Positions 1 through 31,289 of a stretch of 56,903 nucleotides of DNA are shown one piece after another. A model generated the notes under the pieces. It worked only from the letters and a program-made list of their open reading frames with translations, did no database searches and had not been told where the DNA came from. Origin of the DNA: Candidatus Poseidoniales archaeon. GTDB lineage: Archaea > Thermoplasmatota > Poseidoniia > Poseidoniales > Thalassarchaeaceae. The translations under genes and the position numbers were made by a program. Each line of letters opens with the position of its first letter. Within the stretch, counting starts at the first letter, position 1. The stretch covers positions 1 through 56,903 of the forward strand of contig DUDF01000172.1 in assembly GCA_012959435.1 (NCBI GenBank), written 5' to 3'.

Positions 1-1176
1 AACGAGACCGCTGATACTGAACCCCCATGGCAAGGATGCTCTGCAAGTCAGAAAGATACTGACAATGATGGAGTCTCGGATGCAATGGATCAATGCCCGG
101 GATACAATGACAGCATTGATGTTGATGCGGATGGCATTCCTGATGGATGTGATTCGCTGATTGATAATGATGGAGATGGAGTCAACAATACAGCTGACCT
201 CTGTCCAGGCCATGATGATAGCATTGATGTTGACCAAGATGGAGTTCCAGATGGGTGCGACAACATAGTCGATAGCGACTTTGATGGTGTTGCTGATGCT
301 GTAGATGAATGCATGGGTTACGATGACACAATTGATGTTGATCAAGATGGAATCGTCGATGGATGTGACACAATTATTGATTCAGATGGAGATGGCGTTG
401 CTGATTCATTTGAAGTATGCCCAGGGTATGATGACAATGTTGACATTGACGCCGATGGAAAACCAGATGGTTGTGATGATATCATTGATTCAGATAATGA
501 CGGAGTTTCCAACTCTAATGATACCTGTGAAGGACATGATGACAGCGTTGATTTAGATGGAGATGGAATTGCTGACGGATGTGATAATCTCATTGACTCT
601 GATGCTGATGGAGTAGCAGATGTTGATGACAAGTGTGCAGGACATGATGATAGTATTGACATTGATAATGACCAAATCGCTGATGGATGCGATACTCTTC
701 TTGATAACGATGCAGACGGGATTGCAAATGAAAATGACAATTGTGTAAGCACACCCGCAGGAACTGAAATAGACAGTACTGGGTGTGAAAAACCAGCGGC
801 TGGATTATCAGGTGGAATAATCAGTTCACCAATAGTGATAGGTGGAATTCTTGGTGTTGTGGGTGTTGTTGTCTTAGTAGCCGCTATTACAATCATGCGC
901 CGAGGAAAGGATGACGGCGATGATGGGGATGAATTACTATTTGACGAACCACGAAGTAACCTACAATTTAGTGGAGCAGGGATGCCAACTAGAAGTTCTC
1001 AGCCACTTAATTCCTACCCTACATCAGGTGCACCTACGGTAGCATCAACTCCACACCCATCACAGGTTGGAAAAATGCAGCAAGATGGATACGAGTATCT
1101 CGAACACCCCCCTAACTCAGGGACTTGGTGGCATAGGGATCAACAAACTAATCACTGGATGAAATACCAAGGTTGA
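1..1176 (+). CDS. Thrombospondin type-3 (Ca-binding) repeat surface protein with C-terminal membrane anchor, 5'-truncated
   Basis: Frame is open from base 1. Six ~36-aa units (CxGxDDxxDxDxDGxxDGCD...DxDxDG) are followed by a hydrophobic helix (IVIGGILGVVGVVVLVAAITIM), RRGK, an acidic linker and a GYEYLEHPPNSGTWW tail. Confidence 0.85.
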   Translation, partial: NETADTEPPWQGCSASQKDTDNDGVSDAMDQCPGYNDSIDVDADGIPDGCDSLIDNDGDGVNNTADLCPGHDDSIDVDQDGVPDGCDNIVDSDFDGVADAVDECMGYDDTIDVDQDGIVDGCDTIIDSDGDGVADSFEVCPGYDDNVDIDADGKPDGCDDIIDSDNDGVSNSNDTCEGHDDSVDLDGDGIADGCDNLIDSDADGVADVDDKCAGHDDSIDIDNDQIADGCDTLLDNDADGIANENDNCVSTPAGTEIDSTGCEKPAAGLSGGIISSPIVIGGILGVVGVVVLVAAITIMRRGKDDGDDGDELLFDEPRSNLQFSGAGMPTRSSQPLNSYPTSGAPTVASTPHPSQVGKMQQDGYEYLEHPPNSGTWWHRDQQTNHWMKYQG

Positions 1177-3292: not shown

Positions 3293-3511
3293 ATGAGAGG
3301 CCGAAACTGGGTTGGAGTCGCTTTCATCTTTCTATTTCTACCCGTGAATGTGCCATTATGGGATATTGTACTTCCAAAACTAGGCATCAATATAATGGCT
3401 GTTTTTATTGTCCCACTATTCTTTTTCCTCGGAATATTGCTCGTCTTCTATCCTAGTAGAGAAGATAGAATCTCCACCATCCCATCAAACCAAGCGAATG
3501 AGGAGGAGTGA
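3293..3511 (+). CDS. Small two-TM membrane protein
   Basis: 72 aa with two hydrophobic segments. Its stop codon overlaps the RBS region (GGAGGAGTGA) of the downstream MFS gene. Confidence 0.7.
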   Translation: MRGRNWVGVAFIFLFLPVNVPLWDIVLPKLGINIMAVFIVPLFFFLGILLVFYPSREDRISTIPSNQANEEE

Positions 3512-3513
3512 AA

Positions 3514-5841
3514 ATGAAGAAAATCATTGTTATCAGCCTCATTTTGATATTGTCAACCCTTGCCTTACCATTGGCTATTGCTCAGGAAGAGGTGCTTCCT
3601 CCTGATGTGGATTATGAACCGGAAATGCGGATGACTAGACTATTCGCATATAGTCAAGATACGCTATCTCCCGAACTCGTTGAGCGGGCCGAGATGTACA
3701 CTCACAATTTCCCCTTGGGTTTCGGTTCTTTTTCATCCGATGGTCCGACTCTTACCACTCCTAGTTTCGTTCGTGATGCTCCAATTGGAAGTGAAGATTG
3801 GAATTTCTCACTTTGGGCAAGTGGTAATGCCCAGGTTGATATTGACCTCTTCCTGTTCATTGATGGCACCGAATTAGACCAAATTAATAGTGGCGGGATT
3901 ACACTTTCTGAAGTAAAACAACGTATTGATTTCACGGGTGGGAATTTACCAGATAACATTTCAATTGACCAAACTCTTTCAATCCGCTGGACTGTCAATA
4001 GCGGCGCTACTCCATTAATAGAGAATAGTGATTGCACAATCCACTGGGGCTCAGCCGAAACTCCAACAAATCTAACAATCTCTGCAGGAATGTATCAAAT
4101 TGATGACCCTTACCTTGAGAATGAAGGTACCCCATTCAGGGGTGATGGAGAGAACTACTCACGCAGTGAATTAGTTTGGGCTGTTCAAGCACGTTGGGCT
4201 CTTGATGAAAACCAACTTGAAAAAGGAACCCTAGTATTACACGCTGATGACGGAGGAAATGAACTCATCATTGAACCGAATGGAGAGGGCATCAAGTCAG
4301 ACAGCGGAATCTACCGCTGGGAAATTGAAGAGTGGGAAGATGGAGTAATCCTCTCAGCCCATGTGATGTGGAATGATTCGTCAGGACTCCACGGAATGAC
4401 AAATCAAGTTATAGAAATGATGGACCCAAAGGGGCCGAGCATCCTATCTAGTGGGCTCAAAACCACATTGTTTTTCCTAACAATACCAGTTCTCATTGGA
4501 GTTGGATTTTGGCTCAAAGGACGATTTGAAACACTTGAGGAGAATGGAAAGGAGTTAGGGCATGGACCAGGTAAAGAAGGTGATTTAAAACGCCTGATTG
4601 TGGCTACTACATTTTTAATTGCTGGAATAAACAATGCACTGATACTCTACAGTTTCCACACACGAGAGTTGGGGGCGTCGGAGGATATCGTAATTCTCCA
4701 CCTTTGTTTACTTGCTTTTGCACTTGGGGCTTTTGGCCCTATTTGGGGTGCAATTGCTGATAAATGGGGCCATCGTAAGCAACTGATGGCATTTGCAATC
4801 ATTGGAGCAAGTTTACTGATGTTAACATTCCCGTTCCTGCCTCTTGAGGGTTATATCCTTGTCTCAGCTTTACAGGTTGCTCTATTCTCAGCCGTGCGCA
4901 TGGGAGTTGCAGTCGGAACAGAATGGTACCCTGAACAAAAGGGTGAGTTCCTTGGAGTGCTGTATGCATTCGCATCCTTTGCAGCAGCAATTGGTTCAAT
5001 GTTGTGCAGTAAATTGTATGTGACTCTATTACCCACTAGCACCACATTTGCGATGCTAGGTATAGTGGGGGTATCAGTTCCCGCCTTACTATTTGGTGCG
5101 TGGATGATATTACAATTTGAAGGTGATGAATTCTCTTGGCCGGTATGGATGTTGAAAGGTGGTAAGAAACCTGATGTGGTTAAGTTAACAATTTCTGAAA
5201 AAATGTCAATGTTCAGAGGCATGCTTCGCTTTGAAAGTAAATGGGCACTTCTCTGTCTCTTAGGAGTAATCTTGGTTGCAATTCCACGTGGTGCTGTTGT
5301 TCTAACTGCCTTGCGTTACCTCGAAGTTGTTGGGTTTGATGTTGACTTCACTGGCTTGTTAGAAGCATGGGCTGTGATTGCTGTCCTAATTTTGTACGCG
5401 GTAATTGGAAAGGTGTGCGATGATCGTGGGCCCCAGACCGTTTTGCTTTGGTCAGCTGCCGCCTATGGTACTCTGTGGTCAATCTTCAGCATCGGCCTTC
5501 CGCCAATGATTGCTGTACTCATCTTTGTGGTCCCAATTTACCCGATGCTGTTGGTGTCAAATGATGCTTTGATGGCAAAATTCACGAACAATGAAGAGAG
5601 GAATCGTGGAATCGGTATGGCCAGCCTTGTTGCTTTCTTAGGCCAATCTATCGGCATACTGGCTGGATTCTTTGCACTTGGGTACCTTATTAGTTCAGGG
5701 AAAACTGACATTATTGCCTACGAAACTTTCTACCGAGCAAATGTGCCTCTTTGGATACTTGCAATTGGTTTCACGTTTTGGCTTGCAAAACGTATTGATG
5801 CCAGTGAGGAGGGTGTAATTGATGCAGAGATTAGCGAGTAA
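3514..5841 (+). CDS. MFS transporter fused to an N-terminal ~300-aa extracellular domain
   Basis: Signal peptide, soluble beta-rich region, then ~12-13 TM helices with MFS motif A twice (GAIADKWGHRK; GKVCDDRGPQ). RBS GGAGGAG. Confidence 0.85.
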   Translation: MKKIIVISLILILSTLALPLAIAQEEVLPPDVDYEPEMRMTRLFAYSQDTLSPELVERAEMYTHNFPLGFGSFSSDGPTLTTPSFVRDAPIGSEDWNFSLWASGNAQVDIDLFLFIDGTELDQINSGGITLSEVKQRIDFTGGNLPDNISIDQTLSIRWTVNSGATPLIENSDCTIHWGSAETPTNLTISAGMYQIDDPYLENEGTPFRGDGENYSRSELVWAVQARWALDENQLEKGTLVLHADDGGNELIIEPNGEGIKSDSGIYRWEIEEWEDGVILSAHVMWNDSSGLHGMTNQVIEMMDPKGPSILSSGLKTTLFFLTIPVLIGVGFWLKGRFETLEENGKELGHGPGKEGDLKRLIVATTFLIAGINNALILYSFHTRELGASEDIVILHLCLLAFALGAFGPIWGAIADKWGHRKQLMAFAIIGASLLMLTFPFLPLEGYILVSALQVALFSAVRMGVAVGTEWYPEQKGEFLGVLYAFASFAAAIGSMLCSKLYVTLLPTSTTFAMLGIVGVSVPALLFGAWMILQFEGDEFSWPVWMLKGGKKPDVVKLTISEKMSMFRGMLRFESKWALLCLLGVILVAIPRGAVVLTALRYLEVVGFDVDFTGLLEAWAVIAVLILYAVIGKVCDDRGPQTVLLWSAAAYGTLWSIFSIGLPPMIAVLIFVVPIYPMLLVSNDALMAKFTNNEERNRGIGMASLVAFLGQSIGILAGFFALGYLISSGKTDIIAYETFYRANVPLWILAIGFTFWLAKRIDASEEGVIDAEISE

Positions 5842-5846
5842 CACTA

Positions 5847-6566
5847 CTACGCTGTATCTGTGATATGGGCTAGAGCCACATTGGTCACCTGACCTGAAAG
5901 AAGTGGTTGCCAGGAATGTATACGATATAATTGAGAATTAATTGTGATTACTTCTTTGTCTAGCACCTCAAAAGATTGTGGTGCAAGACCCATCCCAAGA
6001 CCTGTGGCCTTCTGAATAGCTTCTTTTACAACCCAAACCAAATTGGTTAGTGTGCTTGCTGCACCGGGATTTTGGTCCCATGCTTCCTCAAGTTTAGTCA
6101 ATTCATCTCCTGATGCCATAAGTGGTAACAAATTGCGTTGCCGACCGGAATCAGGTTCAACATCGATTCCCACTGATAACTCAGTTGGAGCAATAATCGC
6201 AATGGCTAGTCCACCACTATGTGTGATAGAGATTGAAAGAGGTTGTGGGCCAATTAAAATTGGTCTCCGGTATTCATTCCTTTTAATTTGATAATCCTTG
6301 ACATCATATCCATTTTGTTGTAGGAGATGGGCGATAAGATACCGACCCGCCGCATGTTCTTCTGCACGTTTTGCAACTTTGAATGACTGAGCCTCAATCG
6401 CATCTACAAAATGGAGATGAGAAATATCTGGTATAGAATCTGATGGAGGGGGGTTGCGTGTCTTCATCCAAACCGCATGAAATTCGCCTTCAACGGTTTC
6501 TGGAAGATTCAACAAAAGAGGGGTTGAAGCCGGTTCCCACATCCCATTCACCAATTGGAAATTCAA
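5847..6566 (-). CDS. 4'-phosphopantetheinyl transferase, Sfp/EntD type
   Basis: Motifs HAAGRYL, YRRP, SISITHS, VGIDVE and WVVKEAIQKATGLG; starts 4 nt after the PKS stop. Confidence 0.92.
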   Translation of the reverse strand: MNFQLVNGMWEPASTPLLLNLPETVEGEFHAVWMKTRNPPPSDSIPDISHLHFVDAIEAQSFKVAKRAEEHAAGRYLIAHLLQQNGYDVKDYQIKRNEYRRPILIGPQPLSISITHSGGLAIAIIAPTELSVGIDVEPDSGRQRNLLPLMASGDELTKLEEAWDQNPGAASTLTNLVWVVKEAIQKATGLGMGLAPQSFEVLDKEVITINSQLYRIHSWQPLLSGQVTNVALAHITDTA

Positions 6567-6570
6567 TTTT

Positions 6571-9500
6571 TCAATTGCGATTCAACGAAAAGGAATCGCT
6601 TTCTGAAATAGGTGCCATGCCCTTCAATCGCAACCCTTTCATAGAAACAACTGGTTTGCCATCCTGGTTCACAACCAAGCAATCGTGAACGGTGACTCCG
6701 TCATCTTCTGCACCTCTCCTCAAAGCGCGCATTCTTAGTGAATCTGTCTTTTCAGGAGTTCTAATCAACTCAAGCATCTCAATTCCTACAGGTAAAGATT
6801 GCAAACCGTCAATTTCCATTGCCACCATTCCAGCGTTCTGGAAACATGCTTCAATCAACATAGGTTGGGATTCTAATGTGACTTCTTCAGAAGAGAATTG
6901 ATTTGTATTTGGTAACTGATGACGTGATAATGCAATGCCGTCCGCACCAAACATCTCATCGATACTACATCCACTCAATATCCCACCATGTGATTGGAAT
7001 CTAGGCCCATGGAAGAATCGCTGGTACACGAAATCTGATCCAAGAACAACACCACCTCTTGAAGGAGTCCCAATTGATGGTAACTTCAACAACCCTCTGC
7101 CAGCATCTTTCTTTAGCATCCTAACTAAACATCTGTGATGTATTCTTGGCTCTCCAAATATCTCTCCAGATTTGTTAATCAAATCTGATTCTAATCTGCA
7201 TTTAACCCACACATTTTCTGAGTTTTGATGTGAGAATTCGGAAACTACTCTCAACTTTTGCTCGGGCTTTAGTAATTTGATTGGCAAACCAAACCTCACC
7301 CCTGCAAATCCTATTACTGAGCATGGAGGCCACAACAATTGTGCACCTTGTGAAAACATTTCAAGAGCCATCACCCCAGGATGATATGGGACATCATCGA
7401 TAGCATGGTCTTCTAAGAATGGGTAACTATTGACATCTATTGTACACTCGTATGATAGTGAGTCGAATGGTTGGTGGGCCACAACTTTGTCTACAAACGG
7501 GAAGCGCTTGGCGTCAGCTAACAACTCTGAAACATCATGTGGTAATCGTTGTGGAGGCTCTCGGTCAGAACCATCATCATTCAGAACTCCAAGACTTCCT
7601 GCAAGGACGACTCTGCGTTTACCGCCTCTCATCACTTCATCAACGAACAGGGAAACTCCCTTCTCAACTGATACGGTCTCAATTCCTGCTTCCTCGAACA
7701 CCCTTTCAATCGAGCCACGGGTTGCCATCCCAACATCTTGCCAACCAGTCCACGCCAAAGCAACAGCGTGAGGTTCTGAATCAGTGTGTGCAAGGCGTGA
7801 CATTTCAGCATCAAGAATACAATTTGCTGCGGCATAATCAACTTGCCCTCCATTGCCAAATCGGCCTGCAATTGATGTAAAAGCACAACAATATCGTAAT
7901 TCTGAGCTATGGTCTTTAACGGCATTAACTAGAGACTGCCAGCCATCAACTTTGACAGACATTACATTGTTGAAGGTATCCCAATCTTTGTCAGCAACCA
8001 TCTTTGAATCTTCAATACCAGCCCCGTGAATTATTCCCGTTATTGGTGAACGCCTCTTCTTCAACTTCTTGATAACCTTTCTAACCTGTTTACTAACTGT
8101 TACATTACAAGCATGATAGGTCGCAGTATTGCCACTTTCCTCTATATCTGAAAGTGTTTTATGAATGTCAATTGAACGCTTAATCTTTGACCATGCCTTT
8201 TCCCAATCAACGATTGTAACTTTGCCAGACTTTGAATCGCCTTGCATCTGGATTCTCAATTCCTTCTTCATTTGCAGTAATGTTTCTTCTGAGGCATCGG
8301 CTAAACTTGATAGAGAACCATCAAGTTTAGTTCGTCCAAGTAATGCAAAGTGGCAACCAATTCCTCGATTCGCTTGTGCTAGGCCAACGATACAGGCAGC
8401 AGTAACCCCTGAGCCGCCCCCAGATACAATGAACACATCATCTGATTTTAGTGACTGCGGCTCAGATTCGTGGGCTTCATCATAAATGCAAACCTGCCAT
8501 CTTCTCCCATCGCCATCAATCCCAAGTTCGCGCGGACCCATGCGCTCTATTTCGCTGAGTATTGTTGATGCCAATTTATCTGCGTCCACCAAGAGTTCAG
8601 GTGCAACATCAATTGCTCTAGCCCGAATGTTTGGCCTCTCTCTCCCAAACGATTTGACTATCCCATGTGCACCAGCACCTAGTGGATTGAATCGATATCC
8701 GCCATTTCCATGTCGGCCATCAAGTGCTGAAATTGAACAAACAATTCCGTCACTACGGTCCGCCAACTTTGCATCTATTTGTTGCAGCACCCCAAATAAA
8801 CCATGGCAAACCATCTGTGTTTGTTGTTGGCTAGTGACCTCGGCCCAAGCAATTCCCGCTAAAGTACAAGGAGCAGTGTGGATAACTCCTACAATATCCA
8901 AATCACTAATGATATCACCAAATTGAGATAGGTGATCTCGATTCCCAGGGTCTAATCTGATAATATCAATCTCACCATCTTTTTCAATTTTAATGTTTGA
9001 AGTGATGCTAGGGTCTAGCATCAACCTAACAGCTTCAGAACCGCTTGATTCAAGTTGCTGGCAGATAGCATTTCCAAGCCCCCAAGAATCATCAGTCACA
9101 ATGATGTATGAACCAGCCATATCAATTGGGTGGGACTCAGATTCATCAGCCTCCTCAACTTCAACTACCCAGCGACGAACTGTACTTTCAACAGAAATTT
9201 GTGGAGATGGTGGTTCAACTACCACTAACTCTGACTTGTCAGGGGCCACTTCTTTTTTCTCCGGTTCAGAATCCACTATCACAACATTATCTGCTGGCTC
9301 ACCCCCACGCATTGAAACAATATAGGATATCATATGAGCAAGAGTTGGGTAATCACGCAATTGGAATGACTCATCTACAGGTAAGGAAAATTGTTCACGG
9401 CAATCAGCCATTATTTCCGCTTGTTTGACTGTATCAATCCCCAATTCACCTTCTAAATCTTGATCCAACTCAAGGAAATCTTCTGGATAACCAGTGTGCC

Positions 9501-12500
9501 TTACAACAATTGATAGGACACCTGACTCGACATCGCTATCGGTATTCTCTAGGTTTGGAGGATTACTCTCCACCGACTGTTCGTCCACAGAACTACTCAG
9601 CACAGGTTGCTCCTCTTGTGGGTTTGCTTGCTCTTCTCTTCCCCCACCCATACTGGCGATGTAACTAATCATGTGATTTAGTGTTGGGTGTTCACGTAAC
9701 TGAAATGAATCATCAACTGGCAAGGAAAATGTCTCCCTTAAATCAGCCATTATTTCTGCCTGCTTTACTGTATCAATTCCTAATTCACCTTCTAGGTCTT
9801 GGTCCAGTTCAATGAAATCAGTAGGGTAACCTGTATGCTTTGCAACAGTTTCTACCACCTTATGAGCAAGTCCTACTGGATGTTCGCCAGCAATTGTTTC
9901 AGTAACAGTTTGACTTACTAGCACAGTAGGGGGGGTCTCTTCAGCGACCGCTTTCACTTCCTCTTTTGGTATCACATCGGGTTGCGATGGGGCTGATTTC
10001 AGAGGCATTGTTGATGGAAGGGTAGAATCGGGTTGTGCATCTTGCTTGGAAACCTGCCAATCACTACCTTCAACGCCACCTATCAATGAATCATCAGGGG
10101 CAATGTATGCAACTAATTTTCGCTTCAATAAGCGTAATTCGACATCATCTCCTGCTTGACGTACTGCCCATTTCTCAACACTTTCTCTATCAACTCTATT
10201 GAGAGTTCTAGCAATTCGTTTGAACATTGTCAGAGCAATTTGACTGCCAAATCCTGCGGCATGACGAAGCATGTATTCAACATCATATTCTCCACCTTCA
10301 GAAAGTCGGAGGTTTCCTAATGCAGGATCTGGTTGTTGGAAGTTAGCAATCGGTGGTAACCGACCTGATGCTAGACCATACAATCCGGTGGCATCTTCAA
10401 CACCAACACCCATCGGATGACCTGTGAATCCCTTGGTATTGGTTATGATTAAACTCTCAGCAGAGTCCTTGAAAGCACCTCTAAGAGATTCAATCTCAGC
10501 AGCAGCCGAACCGCCTCTAGGAGGAGTGAATGGTTCATGTGACATGAAAGTCGTTTTAGGTGCGATCTCATGTCTATCAATTCCCCAACGGTTTTCCATA
10601 TCGGTCACGAACTCATCAAAAGTTGATGCTACATGTGCAACATCTAGCCTTGTAGGATGGTATGCCGAATTTCCGATATGAGCACCTAATAATTCTGCGT
10701 ATGGAACTACTCCCCTCTCATCAGCATGAGTTGATTTCTCAACTACGAAGGCAGCCCCACCCATACCAAGCAACATGCCGTTGCGTCTGACATCAAATGG
10801 TAACGCTACTTCTTCCACTACATTACCCATTGAATGGGCACCTGCAGCAGCAAAACCTGCACCGATCCATTCCATCAAATCGTCACCGGTGGAATCGTCG
10901 CCGCTGATTACAATCACTCTGTCACAGCGACCTGAGTCTAACCAATCCTCAGCGATTGCAAAGGCGGCTGGAGTAGAGGCACATGCGTTATTGATGGCCA
11001 AATTCGGGCCACGCGCCCCAATCCATTGAGCGAACTGTGCGTGCCCCATTGTTAGAATTTGGAGTAAGAATTTTCTATCAAAAGTGCCGTTTTTGTCAGC
11101 CCCATTATTCAGTGCGTGCCGCATGGCCATACCTATGCCAGGGAATACTGAGGCGAAAATCACGCCAGTTCTTTCACGAATTGAGTTGGGAAGATTCCAC
11201 CCTCTTACTAATCTCTTACCAGCACTACTCACCTGTTCGACAGGTAGGAGTGGGAGTGCTGCATCTTTGAGAGCCTCCAATCCAGCAGCAAAAGAAAGAG
11301 TAGTGGAAACATCCATTGCCGCCACTATTTTAGGATCAATCCCATATTGCTCCGCCAAATCAAAGTAGCCACCAACTCCTGCTAGTTGAGGTATGCTAGC
11401 AAAGGATTCACAGGGTAAAAATTCAGCTCTTCCATCAGGATGTTTAACGATTCTAACCATGTTTTTGTCGAGTAAACGCTGTTTGATATCATCGGGTAAT
11501 TCAGTGATGAAATTCTCTCCAGCAATTATTCTCTCTAATGCATCTGGCTCAAATACTTCATTCATCCCAGGAAGCCCAAGGCTTACTCCTGTCACAACAT
11601 AGGGATTGATTCTTCGTTCAGCATGGGGGTCTGAAGAGACTACAACATTTGTTGCACCTTTCACCTTTTGAGAAACTGTGAATCCACTAGGAGGGGCTAT
11701 CACCCACTCGTTTAGGGCTGCTAAGGTTGTTAATTGCTCAGCGTCAGCAGGACCTGAAACTGATGCCTCAGAAGCGATGCTTGCTAGTAAATCAGGTAAT
11801 GTTTCATCAGTAATCCCAAGGGCCAAAAGATGGAGTTCACCTTTGATGAGGCGAGCGGGATAGCCAGTAATATCTGAAATACGGCTTGCAAGGTAACCCT
11901 CTTTGTCAACAACCTGTTGGACCGCATGGTGCCCTCCATCAATCACAATTGTTTGCGATTGGGTATTCTGAGAGGTTGTGGCCATTTGACTATTTGAGGA
12001 ACTTACCGGTAGTGGCCTAGCGCGAACCCTTAATTCTTCCATCTGTTCACTGCTGATTGAAGAAGAATCATCATTAACAATTCCATTTTTCTGCCACACC
12101 TCAATGGGTCCAGCCCTGAATCCTTCAGTGAGGCGGCTTGAATCGACAGAGTACATTGACGGTAATCGTCCTGAAAGTGCGCATACTGCCAGGGAAGAAA
12201 GGAATGATGCTACACCCCCAACCTTTGGGTGGTTTGTGTTGGTAACAACCTTTGATTGTCCATCAAGAATCTGCTCAGCAAAAAGAGATAACGCCCGTTT
12301 TGGTCCAACCTCTATGAATAAGCGTCCACCTCGGCCATACATCTCTTGAATCTGCCCAGTCCATTCTACTGCAGATGACATCTGTGGCGCCAATTGATTT
12401 AGGATTGCATCGTGAACGGTTTCACCATCCCCCAGACTTTCGGGATAGAATTTCCCATCATAGTTGGCAGTGATAGGAATTGAAGGTAATGACAACTCTA

Positions 12501-15060
12501 ATCCTTCGAGGAAACGATGTAGTGGTTCGTTAGCAGGAGCAACAATACGTGAATGGAATGCGTGACTTGTCTGAAGAGTAACGCATGGAATATTCATTTC
12601 TCCAAAGCGTCGAATAATATCTTGCATCGGTTCTGTTTCACCTGCGATGACAGCCATCATCGGAGAATTTTTGTTGGCAGCAATTATGTAACCATCAACC
12701 GAATCAATGACCTCCTGTATTTTCTCAAGTGGTGCAGTGACGCTCGCCATCAACCCCTTGTCCTTTACTTCCACGTTACCCATTTCAGTACCACGGGCAG
12801 CTGCAGCACGCAATGCGTCGTGGAATTTCATGATTCCAGAAACCATCAAGGCAGCGTATTCTCCCAAACTATGGCCAGCAACCATATCAGGATTGATTCC
12901 ATGCTCGCTTAGCAATCTGTAAATTGCTAAATCAGCCGTCAACATTGCTGGTTGGGTGAATTCTGTTTGCTTCAACTTCTCTTCAGCAACTTTGGCCTGC
13001 TCCTCGGTAAGGTTATCGCACAAAACAAACTCAGAAAGTTTTTCACCATCAAGAATTTCAGACATGGTTAAATCCGCTTCATCCCATGTTTCACCAATCA
13101 CTTCGAATCTCTTTGAAAGGTCTAGCGTCATACCAACATATTGACTACCTTGGCCAGGAAACATCTGTACCAATTTTGCATCGGCTGGCAATGCTTCCTC
13201 TTCAGTAATGAAAACCATCTGTTTTGCTAAGAATTCCCATTTTGATGGATCAGAGAGATTATCAGTCAATAAATCCATTCTCTTAGCCAATTGTCCCCAA
13301 TTAGTGGCGACAATACCACAACGAGCACCTTTTGCTTCAAAATCAAATGATAAATCTGAAAGTACTGCTGAGAGTCTGCGGCCTGCTGGGTCGGCATCAA
13401 AGTTTGAAAATGATGATGAAAAGAGAGTTGATTTAACTCGTTCAATTTCTGAGGCTAAAGACTCAATATCATCAGCATTCAGAAGCAATATACCTCCTTC
13501 AATCTCAAGTAATTCTTGATGGCTCATTGAAGGAGTTACAGTTGAATCAAGAACACTTGGAACAATTGGAGTTTGCACTTTAGAAAATGATTGGTCAGAA
13601 AAACTGCGAATGAGGTTTTTGTGGTGCACGGGGTCGTATTGCTCAATAGCACAATGGAAATTTGTCCCACCAAAACCAAACGCAGATACACCTGCTCGTC
13701 TGGGTGCTTTAGATTGTGGAACAGGCCAATCAGAAGATATTGTTGGAACATAAAACGGGATTTCGTCCCAGTTTACTGAAGTATTTGGTTGTTCAAATCC
13801 TGCAGATGGCGGTAAGGTTCTGTGATGAAGCGCTAAACTCGCTTTCAGTAAACCAGCCATCCCAGCAGCTGCTTTAAGGTGGCCAATCTGGCTTTTTACT
13901 GATCCTACTGCAACAAAATCACCAGCGCCACGGTCTGCAAATACCCCAGCAAGAGTTGACAACTCTGTTGCATCTCCAACCTTAGTGCTAGTACCATGGG
14001 CTTCAATTAATTCTACTGAGGACGGAGAATATCCAGCCTGCTGATACGCCCGCATCACTGCCTGCTTTTGACCTCTAGTTGACGGAGCAGTGATTCCTTT
14101 TCCTCTACCATCACTTGATGAACCGATTCCGCGAATAACGCTGTAAATTGTATCACCATCTGCTATGGCGTCCTCTAACCGCTTGAGGACTACACAACCG
14201 GCCCCTTCCCCCATTACAAATCCATTCGCACGTGCATCAAATGGACGGGAATGAAGTGGTGAGAGCGCACCGATAGCACTGAATTTAGCGTATGTCCCAG
14301 GGTCCATGGTCCGATCACTTGCCCCACACAGCATCAAATCGGTTTGACCGGTTTGTAGCATCTGACAAGCAGAGACTAATGCGGCAAAAGTCGACGCACA
14401 AGCAGCATCAGCACTGAAATTTGGTCCTTGTAAGTCAAGCAAGTTGGCCACTCGGCCAGCAACTACATTGGCTAGTTCCCCAGCCATTGTATCTTCATCA
14501 ATACGTGGTGTACCCTCAGTGATTGCATCTTTGAATTGTTCACTACTTGTTGCTGGCATACCAGCTTCAACTGCCTTTCTTGCAATTTGATCTGCGTAAA
14601 CACGCTTACTTGACTGTACTCGATTTTCCCCACCTAAGGCATTAGCGAAAATTACGCCACAACGAGCATTTGGGAGTTGTAAACGACTATTTTCACCTAT
14701 GTAACCAGCATCTTCCAACGCTGCTGCTGAAACCTCAACAGCCCACAATTGGGTATCATCAATTTGAGATAGTGTTCCTGGCGGTTGTTTCCAACGCCTC
14801 CAATCAAACTCAAAATCTTCAACAAAGGCCCCAATCTTAGAGTAGGTTTTGCCTTCTATTGCACTACCTGGCTCACCTTCAACCCAAAAATCGTCTGGGT
14901 TCCACCTATCATGAGGCACTTCACGAATTGCAACTTTAGCATTCAACACATTATCCCAAAATGCGTCAATATCTGGTGCATCTGGTAAAAGAGCGGACTG
15001 ACCTACAATCGCAATCGGTGCGAAAGGTTGTTGGGGGACTTCATCCAGTTGTTCAGTCAT
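6571..15060 (-). CDS. Type I polyketide/fatty-acid megasynthase, PfaA/HglE-like (KS-AT-ACP-like-KS-ACP-ACP-KR-DH)
   Basis: KS1: DAACAS, EAHGTST, KSQIGHLK. AT: FPGQGSQ, GHSLGE, HAFHS. KS2: NNACAS, SHEPFT, KGFTGH. Two ACPs: ELGIDTVKQAEI. KR: GGGSGVT, HGAG, DYAAAN. DH: HAIDDVPYHP and EACFQ. RBS GAGGTGG overlaps the fabI stop. Confidence 0.96.
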   Translation of the reverse strand: MTEQLDEVPQQPFAPIAIVGQSALLPDAPDIDAFWDNVLNAKVAIREVPHDRWNPDDFWVEGEPGSAIEGKTYSKIGAFVEDFEFDWRRWKQPPGTLSQIDDTQLWAVEVSAAALEDAGYIGENSRLQLPNARCGVIFANALGGENRVQSSKRVYADQIARKAVEAGMPATSSEQFKDAITEGTPRIDEDTMAGELANVVAGRVANLLDLQGPNFSADAACASTFAALVSACQMLQTGQTDLMLCGASDRTMDPGTYAKFSAIGALSPLHSRPFDARANGFVMGEGAGCVVLKRLEDAIADGDTIYSVIRGIGSSSDGRGKGITAPSTRGQKQAVMRAYQQAGYSPSSVELIEAHGTSTKVGDATELSTLAGVFADRGAGDFVAVGSVKSQIGHLKAAAGMAGLLKASLALHHRTLPPSAGFEQPNTSVNWDEIPFYVPTISSDWPVPQSKAPRRAGVSAFGFGGTNFHCAIEQYDPVHHKNLIRSFSDQSFSKVQTPIVPSVLDSTVTPSMSHQELLEIEGGILLLNADDIESLASEIERVKSTLFSSSFSNFDADPAGRRLSAVLSDLSFDFEAKGARCGIVATNWGQLAKRMDLLTDNLSDPSKWEFLAKQMVFITEEEALPADAKLVQMFPGQGSQYVGMTLDLSKRFEVIGETWDEADLTMSEILDGEKLSEFVLCDNLTEEQAKVAEEKLKQTEFTQPAMLTADLAIYRLLSEHGINPDMVAGHSLGEYAALMVSGIMKFHDALRAAAARGTEMGNVEVKDKGLMASVTAPLEKIQEVIDSVDGYIIAANKNSPMMAVIAGETEPMQDIIRRFGEMNIPCVTLQTSHAFHSRIVAPANEPLHRFLEGLELSLPSIPITANYDGKFYPESLGDGETVHDAILNQLAPQMSSAVEWTGQIQEMYGRGGRLFIEVGPKRALSLFAEQILDGQSKVVTNTNHPKVGGVASFLSSLAVCALSGRLPSMYSVDSSRLTEGFRAGPIEVWQKNGIVNDDSSSISSEQMEELRVRARPLPVSSSNSQMATTSQNTQSQTIVIDGGHHAVQQVVDKEGYLASRISDITGYPARLIKGELHLLALGITDETLPDLLASIASEASVSGPADAEQLTTLAALNEWVIAPPSGFTVSQKVKGATNVVVSSDPHAERRINPYVVTGVSLGLPGMNEVFEPDALERIIAGENFITELPDDIKQRLLDKNMVRIVKHPDGRAEFLPCESFASIPQLAGVGGYFDLAEQYGIDPKIVAAMDVSTTLSFAAGLEALKDAALPLLPVEQVSSAGKRLVRGWNLPNSIRERTGVIFASVFPGIGMAMRHALNNGADKNGTFDRKFLLQILTMGHAQFAQWIGARGPNLAINNACASTPAAFAIAEDWLDSGRCDRVIVISGDDSTGDDLMEWIGAGFAAAGAHSMGNVVEEVALPFDVRRNGMLLGMGGAAFVVEKSTHADERGVVPYAELLGAHIGNSAYHPTRLDVAHVASTFDEFVTDMENRWGIDRHEIAPKTTFMSHEPFTPPRGGSAAAEIESLRGAFKDSAESLIITNTKGFTGHPMGVGVEDATGLYGLASGRLPPIANFQQPDPALGNLRLSEGGEYDVEYMLRHAAGFGSQIALTMFKRIARTLNRVDRESVEKWAVRQAGDDVELRLLKRKLVAYIAPDDSLIGGVEGSDWQVSKQDAQPDSTLPSTMPLKSAPSQPDVIPKEEVKAVAEETPPTVLVSQTVTETIAGEHPVGLAHKVVETVAKHTGYPTDFIELDQDLEGELGIDTVKQAEIMADLRETFSLPVDDSFQLREHPTLNHMISYIASMGGGREEQANPQEEQPVLSSSVDEQSVESNPPNLENTDSDVESGVLSIVVRHTGYPEDFLELDQDLEGELGIDTVKQAEIMADCREQFSLPVDESFQLRDYPTLAHMISYIVSMRGGEPADNVVIVDSEPEKKEVAPDKSELVVVEPPSPQISVESTVRRWVVEVEEADESESHPIDMAGSYIIVTDDSWGLGNAICQQLESSGSEAVRLMLDPSITSNIKIEKDGEIDIIRLDPGNRDHLSQFGDIISDLDIVGVIHTAPCTLAGIAWAEVTSQQQTQMVCHGLFGVLQQIDAKLADRSDGIVCSISALDGRHGNGGYRFNPLGAGAHGIVKSFGRERPNIRARAIDVAPELLVDADKLASTILSEIERMGPRELGIDGDGRRWQVCIYDEAHESEPQSLKSDDVFIVSGGGSGVTAACIVGLAQANRGIGCHFALLGRTKLDGSLSSLADASEETLLQMKKELRIQMQGDSKSGKVTIVDWEKAWSKIKRSIDIHKTLSDIEESGNTATYHACNVTVSKQVRKVIKKLKKRRSPITGIIHGAGIEDSKMVADKDWDTFNNVMSVKVDGWQSLVNAVKDHSSELRYCCAFTSIAGRFGNGGQVDYAAANCILDAEMSRLAHTDSEPHAVALAWTGWQDVGMATRGSIERVFEEAGIETVSVEKGVSLFVDEVMRGGKRRVVLAGSLGVLNDDGSDREPPQRLPHDVSELLADAKRFPFVDKVVAHQPFDSLSYECTIDVNSYPFLEDHAIDDVPYHPGVMALEMFSQGAQLLWPPCSVIGFAGVRFGLPIKLLKPEQKLRVVSEFSHQNSENVWVKCRLESDLINKSGEIFGEPRIHHRCLVRMLKKDAGRGLLKLPSIGTPSRGGVVLGSDFVYQRFFHGPRFQSHGGILSGCSIDEMFGADGIALSRHQLPNTNQFSSEEVTLESQPMLIEACFQNAGMVAMEIDGLQSLPVGIEMLELIRTPEKTDSLRMRALRRGAEDDGVTVHDCLVVNQDGKPVVSMKGLRLKGMAPISESDSFSLNRN

Positions 15061-15069
15061 ATTACCACC

Positions 15070-15861
15070 TCAATCTGAGATACTGTCTGGTACCATAATG
15101 CTGGAATAACCTGCATCAACATGAATGATTTGTCCTGTTACTCCTGATGACAACGGCGATGATAACCAAGTTGCGCATCCTGCAACATCTTTCTGTGTGA
15201 CATTTCGACGTAATGGTGAGTTTCTCTCAACATGGTCTAAAATATCATCAAATCCAGGGATGCCTCCTGCGGCTAAGGTTTTGATTGGCCCCGATGAAAT
15301 CGCATTCACTCGATGGCCATCTGGGCCAACATGATTTGCAAGTTCGCGAGTCCATGCTTCTAATGCCGCTTTTGCTATACTCATCACCCCGTAGTTTGGA
15401 ACCCACCTAGTTGAGGCAGCATAGGTTAGAGTGATTGTTGATGAGTTAGGGGCAAGATGTGGCAAAGCATAGCGCATTACTCTTTGTAATGAATGAGCAC
15501 TGATTGTCAATGCTGTGTTTATCGGGTCATTTTCCACGAATAACACTGGTCGGTCAAAACATGGGCGCGGAGCAAATCCAATGGCATGAATGACAATATC
15601 CGCTTTTGCACCAGGGTTTGCATTTTGCCATTCTGTGAAAAATTCGGCTGTTAATTCATTGGTTTCAACATCAATTGGGTAAAATGCTTCGATATTATCT
15701 AATTTCTCTTTCAATTGAAATACACGGCTCATAAATCGCTTCTGAAAACCAAGAATTAACTTGCATCCAGCAGCTGATAATTGCTCGCAAATAGCCCATG
15801 CAATGCTTTCTTCGCTAGCCACACCGAATACTAGTGCAGTTTTTCCCTTTAGTTCCAACAT
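15070..15861 (-). CDS. fabI: Enoyl-ACP reductase, FabI-type SDR
   Basis: LVFGVASEESIAWAI, HAIGFAP, catalytic Y-x6-K (YGVMSIAK), ISSGPIKTLAA, TGQIIHVDAG. Probable start at MLELKGK. Confidence 0.92.
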   Translation of the reverse strand: MLELKGKTALVFGVASEESIAWAICEQLSAAGCKLILGFQKRFMSRVFQLKEKLDNIEAFYPIDVETNELTAEFFTEWQNANPGAKADIVIHAIGFAPRPCFDRPVLFVENDPINTALTISAHSLQRVMRYALPHLAPNSSTITLTYAASTRWVPNYGVMSIAKAALEAWTRELANHVGPDGHRVNAISSGPIKTLAAGGIPGFDDILDHVERNSPLRRNVTQKDVAGCATWLSSPLSSGVTGQIIHVDAGYSSIMVPDSISD

Positions 15862-16123
15862 AAAAGCACCTGTTTCTACCAACATCGGTTCGCCGGCGAA
15901 GGCGCCTTCAAGACCTTTGCCTACTCTGTGAGCCAAGAGCGTCATTCACTAGGGGATGTAAGTATCCCAAAAATGTGCCATATGCACACCTATTTGAGTG
16001 CAAATATCAAAATCCCGACCGTAGGTCGGGTTGAAACTCTTGGGAAATAGCAAAAAAACAGAAATTTAACACATCATATTCAAAATAATTCAAATTATGA
16101 TGATATTGATCGATGATATGACT

Positions 16124-18432: not shown

Positions 18433-19638
18433 TCAACCTAGAATTGATGAATCCTTAGCTAAATCTTTCGTGATGTTCTTCTGGTGGCTCTCCAAGGTCC
18501 CACCACCAATTTCAAGCAGTTTTGCGTCACGCCATAATCTCTCAACCACATATTCTCCGACGTAGCCATAGCCACCCATTACTTGCATAGCACGGTCAGC
18601 AATATCTTTCGCTAGGGTTGTTGCGACCAACTTAATACCATCAGAATCCAAACGGTTTCCACTCTGCTCAACATCCATTTGCCTTGCCACGTTGTAGAGG
18701 TAAGCCTCCATACCACGCCATTCAGCGAATGATTGCCCGATGTAACGTTGTATTTGACCAAAATCTCTAATCGGCCGCCCAAATGCTTCTCTCTCGGTAG
18801 CATAGCGGTTCATTTCTTTGACACAGCGACGAGCAATCCCTAGACTCATCGCCGCTAAAGTAAGCCGCTCCAATTCGAGATTACGCATCATGTGAATCAT
18901 TGATTCACCACATTCCCCAACTAGGCTTTCAGGGCCAACTATACAGTCATCATAGACTAATTCAGCAGTGTTGGAACCGCGCATCCCAGTTTTATCCTCA
19001 ATCTTTTGTCCAACTGAAAACCCAGGCGAATCTGCGAACACTAGGAAGGTTGAAATCTCAGCCCTACCATTTTCATTCATTCCTGTTTTCGCATAAGTCC
19101 AAACAACGTCACATGGTGTACCTTCTTCATCAATACAGCCGTTAGTAATCCACATTTTACGACCGTTGATTACCCAATTCCCGTCATCTCTTTGCTGAGC
19201 AGTAGTGCCCATTGACATTACATCTGTACCGACATCTGGTTCAGACATTGCCATGGCTCCTATCCACTCGCCACTGCAAACTTTAGGAAGTATCTCTTGC
19301 TTTTGATTAGAACTTCCATTTCGTGAAAGGTTGTTGACAAACAACATGCTATGGGCAAGATACGCTAACGCAAACCCCGGGTCACTATAGGATAATTCCT
19401 CGTGAACAATTGTAGCGGCTAAGGCGTCCATTCCGGCCCCACCATACTCCTCTGGAGCGGTAATCCCCAGAAGACCTAGCTCACCCATATCACGTAATAA
19501 TTGGAGATTGAACTTCTCATTTCGATCAAACTCAAGTGCTTGAGGCTCAACTTCCGAACTGACCCAGTCACGAACCATTTCTCTTAGCATTGCATGCTCT
19601 TCGGTCGGATTGGCAATGTCAAGCGTCTTGTAATCCAC
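18433..19638 (-). CDS. Acyl-CoA dehydrogenase, isovaleryl-CoA dehydrogenase-like
   Basis: AMSEPDVGTD, NGRKMWITNG, GMRGSNTAEL, REAFGRPI, GGYGYVGEY, RDAKLLEIGGGT. GTG start after GAGGGTGG. Confidence 0.92.
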   Translation of the reverse strand: MDYKTLDIANPTEEHAMLREMVRDWVSSEVEPQALEFDRNEKFNLQLLRDMGELGLLGITAPEEYGGAGMDALAATIVHEELSYSDPGFALAYLAHSMLFVNNLSRNGSSNQKQEILPKVCSGEWIGAMAMSEPDVGTDVMSMGTTAQQRDDGNWVINGRKMWITNGCIDEEGTPCDVVWTYAKTGMNENGRAEISTFLVFADSPGFSVGQKIEDKTGMRGSNTAELVYDDCIVGPESLVGECGESMIHMMRNLELERLTLAAMSLGIARRCVKEMNRYATEREAFGRPIRDFGQIQRYIGQSFAEWRGMEAYLYNVARQMDVEQSGNRLDSDGIKLVATTLAKDIADRAMQVMGGYGYVGEYVVERLWRDAKLLEIGGGTLESHQKNITKDLAKDSSILG

Positions 19639-19667
19639 GCTTCCACCCTCATCTAATTGACGTGATC

Positions 19668-22600
19668 TCACTTGTTCTCTCGTACCCAATCCTGAAGTTG
19701 TTGTAATGACCAGCCTTGGTCAAAGTAACCTTGGATTGTTGCGTCATCCCAGAATGGGAAGAGGCGCTTTGCACGGTCCATCTGTGAGTCTCCTCCAGCA
19801 GCAGGTCCACCACCATAACCAGGTGGGCCACTACTCTGAGTAGCATAGTCCGAACTGCCGCCAGTTTCGGCACGAGGCGGACCTCTTGACATTGGAGTTA
19901 CAGCCTCGCCAGGAGGCAAGTAATCCTCATCCTCAACAAAGAAATCACCTTCTTCTTCATCTTCTCTTCCCATGACCATCATGATACCAACAACTAGTGC
20001 GATAAGAACTAGGATTACAGCAGCAATGCCACCATAAAGTGCCCAACTAGTCTCTGTACCTCCAGAACTACCTGCTTCACGAATATGGAATGAAGGAGAT
20101 TCACCTAATTCATTTCCAGATGCATCATGTATTTTGAACATTACAGATGATACCGGCTCGGGGAAGGCATCTACATGTACTCTACAAATGCTGTTCATTG
20201 CAGGTTCAAAAGTGGTGCCACATGAGTAGTTGAAGTTGCTCAGTTGGCGGCCTTCAATTACTGTAAAGATTTGTAATTCTAATTCACCAGCGTCAGTACC
20301 TACATTGGTTACATCTACGAGCAGTTCGAATGATTGGCCCGCCTCTGGTTGGCCAGGTGAAACGATAATTTTGTTGATGACGAATTCTGCTTCCTTGTAG
20401 GTCAAGGCGAAATCTCCGCCTTCTACAGCAGAGCCAAACTGTCCGCCAAGAGTAACTCCATTACCTGCTGAATCTGTACCTGTGACCCAGAATCTCAAAT
20501 CAACTCCATCAAGGTCTGATGGCAATTCATGACCTGGCCACAAATCAACACAGTAGCCAAATGCTCGATTTGGTGATGCTGACAAATCTAATTGAAGATC
20601 GGCAGTATGCCAAGCATTAGGGAAGGTTGAGCGGTATTGGCTCCAATTTAAATCGTGCTCGTAGTACATCCAGTTGATTTGCATTGAGTTCGCCACTAAT
20701 TTTTGTCTCTCTTGTATTGGGAAATTGATATTCACGCAATGAATAGTTGAAGAAGGTAATATTCCATCAAACCCTTCAGCGTCAGAGCCTGAAGTTAGTT
20801 TCCATGAACCAAACGGTACACTAGGTGCCTCGTTGTCCACCTTCACATAGAAGGTTCTGTCATCAGTCATTGAGAAATCGTTGGCACCAGCTGGCAAGGT
20901 ATACTCGCAATCGGGGTCGTTAACATCGGTCGAGTCGCATACTCTGAAGACATATCGATATTCGTTGGTTGACAGTGCTGCTGGAATAACTAAGTCAAAT
21001 GTTCCATTTTCAAAACTGTAATAGAATACTTCTGTAGCTGCTGCCACATATCCACTGTTAGGCTTATCAGATTCACCACCGGGATAAATTGGTGTGCGAG
21101 TCAATTCCATTGTCATAGGAATCTCTGGTTGGACGTCAACTCCTGACTCCAATGCTGCCTTGAAATAATATTCACCATGTAATTGTAAAAGGTCACCAGG
21201 GCGAACAAAGCCACCATCTTGAGTACCAACTGAGTTTGTGATGAAACCTGAGGTGTCATCAGCAGTTAGAGATTCACTATCAAACTTCAAACCTGAAGAA
21301 TATGCCAATAGTTGGATGTAGCGACTGCTTGAGAGTTTGCTTTCACCATTCTCTGGGTCCAAATCCTTCATGAAAACTTCTGGGGTTATTACGCCCTGAA
21401 GATTAACTACGCCCCAACGCATACGTATTGGTATGTCAACTAGGAATTCTGTTTCAAACGCGTCAATTAGTGCAGTCCCATCCAAGCGTGTGATTCGTGG
21501 GCCTATTCCATCTCCATTAAAAGTCAGCATATCTGCTGAAGTACTATCACTCCAAGAAGTTCCGTTACGAGGTGAGAAATAAACCACGAGGTCATCACTG
21601 ATTGCTGGATTAAGATCCACCTTGACGTAATCTACATCTCTCCAACCATTGTCATCATTACCCTCAACTAACAAATGGTAAACATTGCCAGCATATACTG
21701 ATTTGTTAAATTCTGTTAATGGGTTTCCACCAGCATCGCTAACATGGAATGAGTATACCCCAGGCGGGCGAGATTGCTTACCGATATAGGTAACCAAATC
21801 TGATATGAAACCTGCATCTCCTCCATCGATTGAATTGCCAGAAATATCAGTACCGGAAACAAACAAACTAGTTCGAGGGGCTGGTTCACCATTAGGGATT
21901 GACAAACCCGTTTGGCGGTCATCTATGCAATCATTTGTTGGTTGGCAAGCCAAGTTGGAGATGAAGTAAGTTGTATTTCCATTAATATCCGTCGAATCCT
22001 CATTAAGGGGTACCGACTGATATTCACTCAACTCTGGAATCCTATTGCCGTTAGTGTCATGTTGTGCTTCAACCCAGAAATTCAGAGTGAACGAGGGTGG
22101 GGTTTCTGGAATGTCTCTAACAATAACTCGGAACTTCTGGTTAGCCTGGGGCGGTATCCATGTATCGTCAGCAAGGTCTCTCCAGTTCTGCAAACCCATC
22201 ACACTGATGTTGATGAGATACGGAGAATACTGGTCAATGTAAACCGTCATTGGTATCCCACATTCTAAATCAGGTGATAACTCAGCAGGTGGGCAATTAG
22301 TGTCGCCCCCAGTATAATTATCCATGCGTAGGCGATAGGTATCATTTCCTGCTGAAAGTACTGGAATTGAAGGTTGCCATGAGAAATTACCGCCGAGGAC
22401 TCCCGGGAGTCGATCAATTTCATTCCATTGGCTGATGTTTGAGTCATTCTGTAATTCAAAGACAAGTGTGTAAGATGCTGGGTCAGGAGAAACCCCTAAA
22501 TCCTCAAAACGCACAGTCCCTTCCAAAGTCAACACATTATTACTGTGGATATTCCCTAGGTCGGTTTGCTCTGCATTTGCTTGATTCAAAACGGTCAAGG

Positions 22601-25511: not shown

Positions 25512-25597
25512 GTCTATCACTCCGGAACCGCTATGCGGCTCGTGAAAGCGAGCACAGAGTTGCATTTAATCTCAATGGGCTAATGACTATGGCGAAG

Positions 25598-31237: not shown

Positions 31238-31289
31238 GGAATGCCACGAGAGGACCCGGTTCAATAGAATGACTATCCCTGATATCTAA

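Follow-up and report, generated by a model that had tools for sequence, protein, structure and literature searches.

Both tandem acyl carrier protein (ACP) domains of an archaeal megasynthase have threonine at the position where carrier proteins hold their phosphopantetheine serine. The megasynthase is encoded on the minus strand (6571–15060) of a 56,903-nucleotide stretch of Candidatus Poseidoniales DNA (assembly GCA_012959435.1, contig DUDF01000172.1, positions 1–56,903), hereafter the window. Its open reading frame (ORF), translation and Pfam domains describe a protein of 2,829 amino acids (aa) with two ketosynthase domains (KS1, here KS, and KS2), an acyltransferase (AT), the two ACPs, a ketoreductase (KR) and a dehydratase (DH), in the order KS-AT-KS2-ACP-ACP-KR-DH. 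We consider it probable that Thr1764 and Thr1877 of this protein carry the 4'-phosphopantetheine arm in place of the canonical serine. The case draws on the conservation of threonine in homologues from archaea and bacteria, on the lack of any other carrier domain in the Poseidoniales genomes sampled, and on the linkage of the synthase gene to a gene for a phosphopantetheinyl transferase (PPTase).

Read on the minus strand, ACP1 (9637–9873; aa 1730–1808) and ACP2 (9298–9534; aa 1843–1921) both contain the peptide GIDTVKQAEI within DLEGELGIDTVKQAEI. Its codons are GGA ATT GAT ACA GTA AAG CAG GCA GAA ATA in ACP1 and GGG ATT GAT ACA GTC AAA CAA GCG GAA ATA in ACP2. The threonine codon is thus ACA in both copies, at 9769–9771 for Thr1764 and at 9430–9432 for Thr1877, and five codons around it differ synonymously between the copies (GGA/GGG, GTA/GTC, AAG/AAA, CAG/CAA and GCA/GCG). 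The original prediction on this DNA had placed threonine at these two codons and had named the first three of the synonymous differences; both readings were confirmed, and CAG/CAA and GCA/GCG are added to them. The protein matches the Pfam PP-binding family (PF00550) with 57.3 bits against a cut-off of 20.8, the two domains scoring 39.1 and 31.6 bits. In phmmer comparisons with the Protein Data Bank (PDB), the threonine aligns on the phosphopantetheine serine (DS motif) of both PigH ACPs and of Streptomyces and Plasmodium ACPs. The AlphaFold2 model of ACP1 (predicted local distance difference test, pLDDT, 89.0; predicted TM-score, pTM, 0.76) begins helix II at the threonine, and its Foldseek neighbours are ACPs with query-normalised TM-scores of 0.76–0.86, eight of them at E <= 0.001. 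By sequence and fold, both ACPs are homologues of the PF00550 carriers, with the family's score and its helical bundle; they vary at the defining residue, the serine at the N-terminus of helix II. Three public runs, from three studies, each yielded a contig that agrees with 9250–9930 at every base, and among the difference rows listed for the public runs the only variant inside either threonine codon is a synonymous ACA-to-ACG change at 9769. These independent contigs, together with hundreds of homologues, rule out a sequencing or assembly error, and misalignment of the site is ruled out by the PDB alignments and the AlphaFold2 model.

Whether the GIDT motif is conserved in homologues, as the original prediction had asked, was addressed by four differently biased surveys, all of which returned overwhelmingly threonine, not serine. 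A word-seeded search with the ACP region, biased towards the motif, found 2,838 proteins; in the 120 of these that were listed plus the query, 121 proteins in all, 518 of 520 ACP domains had threonine, one had serine and one, a poor match, had aspartate. A second search used the KS2 domain alone as its query and was blind to the ACPs. It covered 1.84 billion cluster representatives, and of the best 150 that we examined 130 bore ACPs and 20, many of them short sequences, had no ACP match. The 357 ACP domains of this set comprised 337 with threonine, 15 with serine and five gaps or poor matches, such that 119 of the 130 proteins were all-threonine, four all-serine and a few mixed. The third survey matched at least 599 stretches in species-representative genomes with the pattern E[AG][DE]LGID[TS]V, which allows either residue; each of the 79 loci kept had threonine only, and they belong to Poseidoniales, other Thermoplasmatota, Myxococcota, Actinomycetota, Chloroflexota and Acidobacteriota. 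Finally, the DNA pattern G[IVM]D[T/S]VKQ[AV], which leaves AGY serine codons outside, matched in six of 151 Chloroflexota genomes, including the genome on which the search was centred: the codon was ACN in all 24 matches and TCN in none, and a reversed control pattern gave no match. Among the closest homologues, several carry the name Candidatus Poseidoniales (Marine Group II), and family members carry two to six ACPs. In well-aligned ACP domains, serine and threonine are the only residues at the site, and such a restriction to two hydroxyl residues is what would be expected of an attachment site. Judged from these sequences, threonine is a hallmark of the family and not a sign of decay.

Rare serine-type members also exist. 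Two bacterial family proteins (P0161 and P0245) are of the serine type, and serine and threonine are mixed within single proteins, in the order TTTTS or STS or, in P0066, STTTTT. The latter protein (3,695 aa) has serine in its first ACP and threonine in the other five, and a PPTase is fused at its C-terminus. At 29 Poseidoniales loci, 70 of 76 sites encode threonine (ACG 36, ACT 13, ACC 13, ACA 8) and six encode serine by TCA or TCG, one base away from threonine; one further site is a gap. The six serine sites are both ACPs of three genomes, L033 (G015), L034 (G009) and L035 (G059), which belong to one Poseidoniaceae lineage with two genera in the sample and whose synthase is otherwise orthologous. 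We placed these genes in a quick KS2 tree of 72 genes, restricted to rows with more than 450 aligned KS2 residues and with the root assumed. The three serine-type genes form one well-supported clade nested among threonine-type genes, inside a 12-gene clade that also includes the window gene, and all 19 bacterial outgroup rows have threonine. Given this nesting and the all-threonine outgroup, one change suffices, from threonine to serine under the assumed rooting, and the lineage looks like a natural threonine-to-serine switch in both tandem ACPs at once.

We then asked which other carriers the hosts of these synthases possess. In the genome of the window (77% complete), the only two PP-binding matches are those in the megasynthase. 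Among 61 Poseidoniales genomes, 48 of them at least 90% complete, 41 have PF00550 matches, and those that exceed the cut-off fall without exception in long open frames (1,071–3,058 aa); all 29 fetched loci with such frames hold ACP arrays of the megasynthase family. PF00550 found no carrier domain outside this family in the 61 genomes, of which the megasynthase ACPs are the only carrier domains. The separate serine-type ACP that the original prediction had allowed for as the true carrier has thus not turned up, either in the genome of the window or beside the threonine ACPs of the 61. The bacterial hosts present a different picture: in five bacterial genomes with a threonine-type synthase, 24 of 26 translated carrier domains have serine, and both threonine ones belong to this synthase family. 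The serine carriers include AcpP-like proteins, peptidyl carrier proteins of nonribosomal peptide synthetases, polyketide synthase (PKS) carriers and domains of the canonical polyunsaturated fatty acid (PUFA) type, with LGIDSIKRVEIL.

Directly downstream of the megasynthase gene, on the same strand (5847–6566), lies the gene for an Sfp-type 4'-phosphopantetheinyl transferase of 239 aa. The co-encoded PPTase of the original prediction is real: it has 4PPT_N (PF17837) and ACPS (PF01648) domains and is the only PF01648 match in the genome of the window. Its motifs ITHSG, GIDVE and WVVKEAIQK align to human AASDHPPT and to Sfp, and the two domains together with the Asp-x-Glu and W..KE...K motifs assign it to the Sfp-type (group II) enzymes. 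Ten residues (R67, R75, P102, H116, G133, D135, E137, W178, E182 and K186) are invariant in all 35 cluster PPTases compared. The enzyme is distant from the known ones, with 21 bits to human AASDHPPT and 16 bits to Sfp, and no named NCBIfam PPTase equivalog matches it; the best, EntD, reaches 23 bits against a cut-off of 169.

The PPTase and the ACPs occur together. PF01648 matches in 41 of the 61 Poseidoniales genomes, always exactly once; 39 genomes have both ACP and PPTase, 18 have neither, two have only the ACP and two only the PPTase (fragmented genomes). The two ACP-only genomes are serine-type and belong to the same genus; in one of the two, a search with an iterated profile detected a divergent PPTase downstream. 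The serine-type archaeal lineage thus keeps a PPTase at the same position, recognisable by profile. The neighbourhood count took in loci with at least 900 nt after the gene, which applied to 36 of 55 archaeal and 22 of 24 bacterial ones. The PPTase is downstream in all 36 archaeal loci (33 have it no more than 700 nt away, in two it follows a broken frame, and in one it is fused) and within 10 kb of the synthase in 19 of the 22 bacterial loci. The co-occurrence of GIDT with this PPTase, which the original prediction had put forward for checking, is therefore borne out. Since the PPTase is kept intact only where threonine ACPs exist, we argue that these ACPs are its substrate. In one Thermoplasmatota metagenome-assembled genome (MAG; L098), synthase and PPTase form one fused protein of 3,793 aa, with the PPTase at the C-terminal end.

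The five bacterial hosts have three, one, three, one and two PF01648 matches. One of them, a Myxococcales chromosome of 3.5 Mb, has its single match about 0.9 Mb away from the synthase. With 171 bits to the cluster profile this PPTase belongs to the cluster type, and the same genome also encodes serine-type ACPs. Together with the mixed serine/threonine arrays, this single PPTase suggests an enzyme that accepts both residues; the cluster PPTase is probably not exclusive to threonine. A cultured member of the family is also at hand: the actinomycete Nonomuraea gerenzanensis (L155; NZ_LT559118.1, 5989475–6013687) has a synthase with a single threonine-type ACP, LGVDTVKQAEIF, and a PPTase-profile match about 5 kb downstream of it. 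The record NZ_LT559118.1, 11.85 Mb long and labelled a 'plasmid', carries no annotated feature across the synthase stretch.

We further modelled a complex of the PPTase, ACP1, CoA and Mg, which scored 0.93 against 0.09 for the best control, a mark reached by 58 of 80 solved complexes and by two of 110 mismatched pairs. Across the three runs at least 95% of contacts recur, the pLDDT of the partner is at least 91, and ACP residues 34–36 contact E137, W178 and E182 of the PPTase. Similar PPTase-carrier complexes, such as 4MRT and 2CG5, have been solved, so that this result shows likeness only, not binding.

Several observations weigh against phosphopantetheine on threonine. The high score of the complex model may reflect memory of solved PPTase-carrier complexes. 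In the Poseidoniales genomes, the threonine domains score below their serine-type relatives against Pfam PP-binding. The PPTase is absent within 10 kb in three of the 22 bacterial loci, and one Caldilineaceae MAG has only a weak, AcpS-like PPTase match. A column comparison of the PPTases revealed no residue signature specific to threonine. Seventeen columns differ between the two serine-type and the archaeal threonine-type enzymes, and at these the bacterial threonine-type enzymes mostly have other residues: R100 of the archaeal threonine type is glycine in all 16 bacterial ones, and only K66 (8 of 16) and P109 (11 of 16) are common to both. With a single serine-type lineage to compare, this comparison has no power and we conclude nothing from it. 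A further objection comes from E. coli, where ACP S36T, according to one study, 'cannot be post-translationally modified' and fails to rescue an acpP deletion (PMC3340395); threonine is therefore not a generally accepted substitute. The same S36T protein is also used as a control in PMC13343975. The likeness to our case is close, being the same serine-to-threonine replacement at the attachment site; there it is an engineered dead control, whereas in the Poseidoniales synthase threonine is natural and selected, and is paired with an Sfp-type and not an AcpS-type PPTase.

In the mechanism that we favour, the two ACPs would be the working acyl carriers of an iterative type I synthase, fatty-acid- or polyketide-like, with a FabI-like reductase acting in trans. 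The co-encoded PPTase would move the arm from CoA onto the hydroxyl of Thr1764 and Thr1877, after which the AT would load malonyl units, and KS1, KS2, KR and DH together with the trans enoyl reductase would build a mostly reduced acyl chain on the thiol of the two carriers. Threonine would be the ancestral, selected state of the whole family, whose members come from the archaeal Poseidoniales and, among bacteria, from at least the Myxococcota, Chloroflexota, Actinomycetota, Acidobacteriota and Elusimicrobiota, and the PPTase of the family would most likely accept threonine and serine alike. Why threonine should be preferred is a matter of speculation; the residue could shield the carrier from AcpS-type enzymes or from hydrolases, or it could give a phosphodiester of greater stability. 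A wider proposal is possible rather than probable. It holds that Thr-O-phosphopantetheine is a natural linkage made by a distinct Sfp-type PPTase clade, that the methyl group insulates it from AcpS-type transferases and perhaps from holo-ACP hydrolases, that carrier and transferase form an orthogonal pair, and that they constitute the sole acyl-carrier system of Poseidoniales (Marine Group II, one of the most abundant groups of archaea in the plankton), supporting bacterially acquired ACP-dependent acyl-chain synthesis.

The threonine might instead remain unmodified, with the ACP-like domains serving a structural or docking role and the synthase using CoA-bound or free thioesters, as in proposed archaeal ACP-independent fatty-acid synthesis, or an undetected carrier. 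ACP is reportedly lacking in archaea in general, and the genome of the window is only 77% complete. That the E. coli S36T protein is not a PPTase substrate (PMC3340395) points the same way. In that case the PPTase, intact and with its catalytic residues invariant, would be left without a substrate, despite its presence in 39 genomes with the ACPs and its absence with them from 18 of the 61. Nor would one expect only threonine or serine at the site of well-aligned domains with all four threonine codons in use, or the maintenance of two to six ACP copies as in PUFA synthases, and the 61 Poseidoniales genomes, 48 of them at least 90% complete, yielded no further PP-binding domain. We regard an unmodified threonine as improbable on these grounds. 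An arm on a different ACP residue, with the threonine merely capping helix II, is less probable still. Threonine is a good helix N-cap, and T14 (in TGYP) and T64 (in PTL) are likewise invariant in an 11-row ACP alignment; no serine, however, is invariant in that alignment. TGYP and the threonine near the start of the last helix also occur in canonical serine-type PUFA ACPs of the same bacterial genomes (L140, L132), so they are not substitutes for the attachment site, and in the complex model it is ACP residues 34–36 that face the catalytic E137 and E182.

We give almost no credence to the idea that the gene is a dying relic of one lineage and its threonine a disabling mutation, an outcome that the original prediction had itself raised. 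All that speaks for it is the deviation from the textbook motif. The threonine is common to archaeal and bacterial members in several phyla. In related Poseidoniales genomes the synthase frames run uninterrupted by stops over 1,071–3,058 aa, no catalytic motif has been lost, and the variation at the threonine codon in public runs is synonymous. A closer contest concerns the transferase, which might be a specialised, threonine-only enzyme in a closed orthogonal pair with its carrier. No named NCBIfam PPTase matched it, it travels with the synthase even in bacteria that hold other PPTases, and the AcpS-type enzyme of E. coli rejects threonine, according to the S36T work. This exclusivity is unlikely in light of the serine/threonine arrays in single proteins, one of them with a fused PPTase domain, of the serine-type archaeal genes that keep a PPTase at the same position, and of the Myxococcales chromosome in which a single cluster-type PPTase coexists with serine-type ACPs. 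The original prediction of a threonine-linked carrier with a dedicated threonine-accepting PPTase is supported in silico, none of the refuting outcomes that it named and that could be checked this way having come about: the linkage and a threonine-accepting enzyme gain support from the threonine of the homologues, the sole-carrier status and the PPTase linkage, and it is an exclusive dedication to threonine that the mixed arrays, the PPTase of the serine-type lineage and the Myxococcales enzyme speak against.

The remainder of the megasynthase (all on the minus strand) looks active from its motifs, which include DAACAST, EAHGTST, GHSLGE, HAFHS, YAAAN and an H..D....P dehydratase motif; KS1, AT, KR and DH all have their catalytic motifs. 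KS1 (13621–15018; aa 15–480) matches PF00109, PF02801 and PF16197. It is followed by the AT (12172–13164; aa 633–963; PF00698), in which the GHSLGE and HAFHS motifs were located, the latter of which we take to be malonyl-type. KS2, a second, FabF-like ketosynthase (9916–11613; aa ~1150–1715), matches PF00109 and has FabF enzymes as its best PDB relatives. Beyond the ACPs lie the ketoreductase core (7735–8166; aa 2299–2442; PF08659), with YAAAN at aa 2409, and a PKS-type dehydratase (6622–7494; aa 2523–2813; PF21089 and PF14765). No thioesterase domain was found in the megasynthase. A third, degenerate ACP between AT and KS2 (11716–11973; aa ~1030–1115) was suggested by eye from a TGYP...LGITDE resemblance; we rejected it, as BLASTP against ACP1 gave no alignment and the ACP profile was negative even with filters off. 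Contigs of two public runs contain a joint that 'goes back 288' bases between the ACP repeats (window 9403–9690). It may point to a variant form with an additional ACP copy, or it may be an effect of assembling the tandem repeat. Three ACPs are present in related Poseidoniales genes, and two in the clade of the window gene.

In architecture, the family resembles the Type R secondary lipid synthase clusters. These comprise a pfaA homologue with the order KS-MAT-CLF-ACP(3–6)-KR (MAT, malonyl acyltransferase; CLF, chain-length factor), followed by a PPTase gene (Shulse & Allen 2011, PMC3098273). Their hosts there are Koribacter, Solibacter, Elusimicrobium and Roseiflexus, of the Acidobacteria, Elusimicrobia and Chloroflexi, and the clusters are reported without a known product. 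The window gene shows the same layout, a single gene for KS-AT-KS2-ACP2-KR(-DH) with a PPTase gene downstream, and the Type R phyla also occur among its homologues. It differs in its number of ACPs, which is two, in a DH that can be recognised behind the KR, and in a 'CLF' with Cys/His/His retained. Since the Cys, His, His and Lys of KS2 are present without exception in the 72 family members compared, Type R-like synthases probably contain two active ketosynthases and not a KS/CLF pair. The other relative is PfaA (TIGR02813), the best NCBIfam match of the megasynthase, with 855 bits against a cut-off of 1010.1. The two share tandem ACPs with the KTGYP...DLEADLGID frame and a dedicated Sfp-type PPTase, and canonical PUFA ACPs with LGIDSIKRVEIL sit in the same bacterial genomes as the threonine-type synthases. 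The window synthase stands outside the PfaA family, however: its score is below the cut-off, it has an extra KS between the AT and the ACPs, and its ACP motif is DTVKQAE where the PfaA type has DSIKRVE, that is, with threonine at the attachment site. None of the partners PfaB, PfaC and PfaD was found among the ten neighbouring ORFs that we scanned. The transferase in turn shares with Sfp, AASDHPPT and the PfaE-type (group II) PPTases the 4PPT_N and ACPS fold and the Asp-x-Glu and W..KE...K motifs, and differs from the known Sfp-type enzymes in that the sampled archaeal genomes offer it only threonine carriers (serine in one lineage).

In the accessible text of Shulse & Allen 2011 (PMC3098273), the words threonine and archaea do not occur. 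A literature search, whose coverage left out most subscription journals, found no report of threonine-linked phosphopantetheine, only unrelated proteins for the letters of the LGIDT-type motif, nothing relevant on Poseidoniales or Marine Group II with PKS, fatty acid synthase, ACP or PPTase, and no follow-up study of the Type R clusters beyond the 2011 paper. The threonine site, its conservation and its sole-carrier status in Poseidoniales thus appear not to have been reported before, the family itself having been described by its architecture in 2011.

Textbook and motif definitions of carrier proteins all rest on serine, and in E. coli the standard dead ACP is made by changing that serine to threonine. 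Phosphopantetheine on threonine, if true, would be a new linkage in a large natural family from two domains of life, extending a universal post-translational modification. Pathway engineering and protein labelling might also gain an orthogonal carrier/PPTase pair from it, and motif annotation that demands serine may miss or mislabel such domains. For archaeal lipid biology, this is the only carrier/PPTase system found in the sampled Poseidoniales, and a FabI-like reductase and a biotin carboxylase are encoded in the same window. Because the cultured Nonomuraea gerenzanensis has a threonine-type member and a PPTase, the question is directly testable.

The gene for the FabI-like enoyl reductase (15070–15945, minus strand; PF13561, adh_short_C2, 220 bits) lies directly upstream of the megasynthase gene. 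The best NCBIfam FabI model gives it 226 bits against a cut-off of 391, and homologues with 68–83% identity are directly upstream of the megasynthase in all six related archaeal loci examined. The biotin carboxylase (29903–31264, minus strand) is a possible acetyl-CoA carboxylase subunit, which would supply malonyl-CoA, and an acyl-CoA dehydrogenase is encoded at 18433–19689 (minus strand). Beside the PPTase gene, on the opposite strand, lies the gene for a 777-aa protein (3508–5841, plus strand) with an N-terminal half of about 360 aa and a major facilitator superfamily (MFS) transporter half at aa 366–720; it might be related to export or handling of the product. Three probable surface proteins are encoded elsewhere in the window: one of 1,965 aa (19668–25565, minus strand) with a hydrophobic stretch near its C-terminus, as seen by eye, one of 1,748 aa (46878–52124, plus strand) with PA14 and Laminin_G_3 domains, and a thrombospondin-type-3-repeat protein (85–1176, plus strand). 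That the host is an archaeon is evident from further contents of the window, the genes for PCNA and Cdc6/Orc1 and a weak match to TBP.

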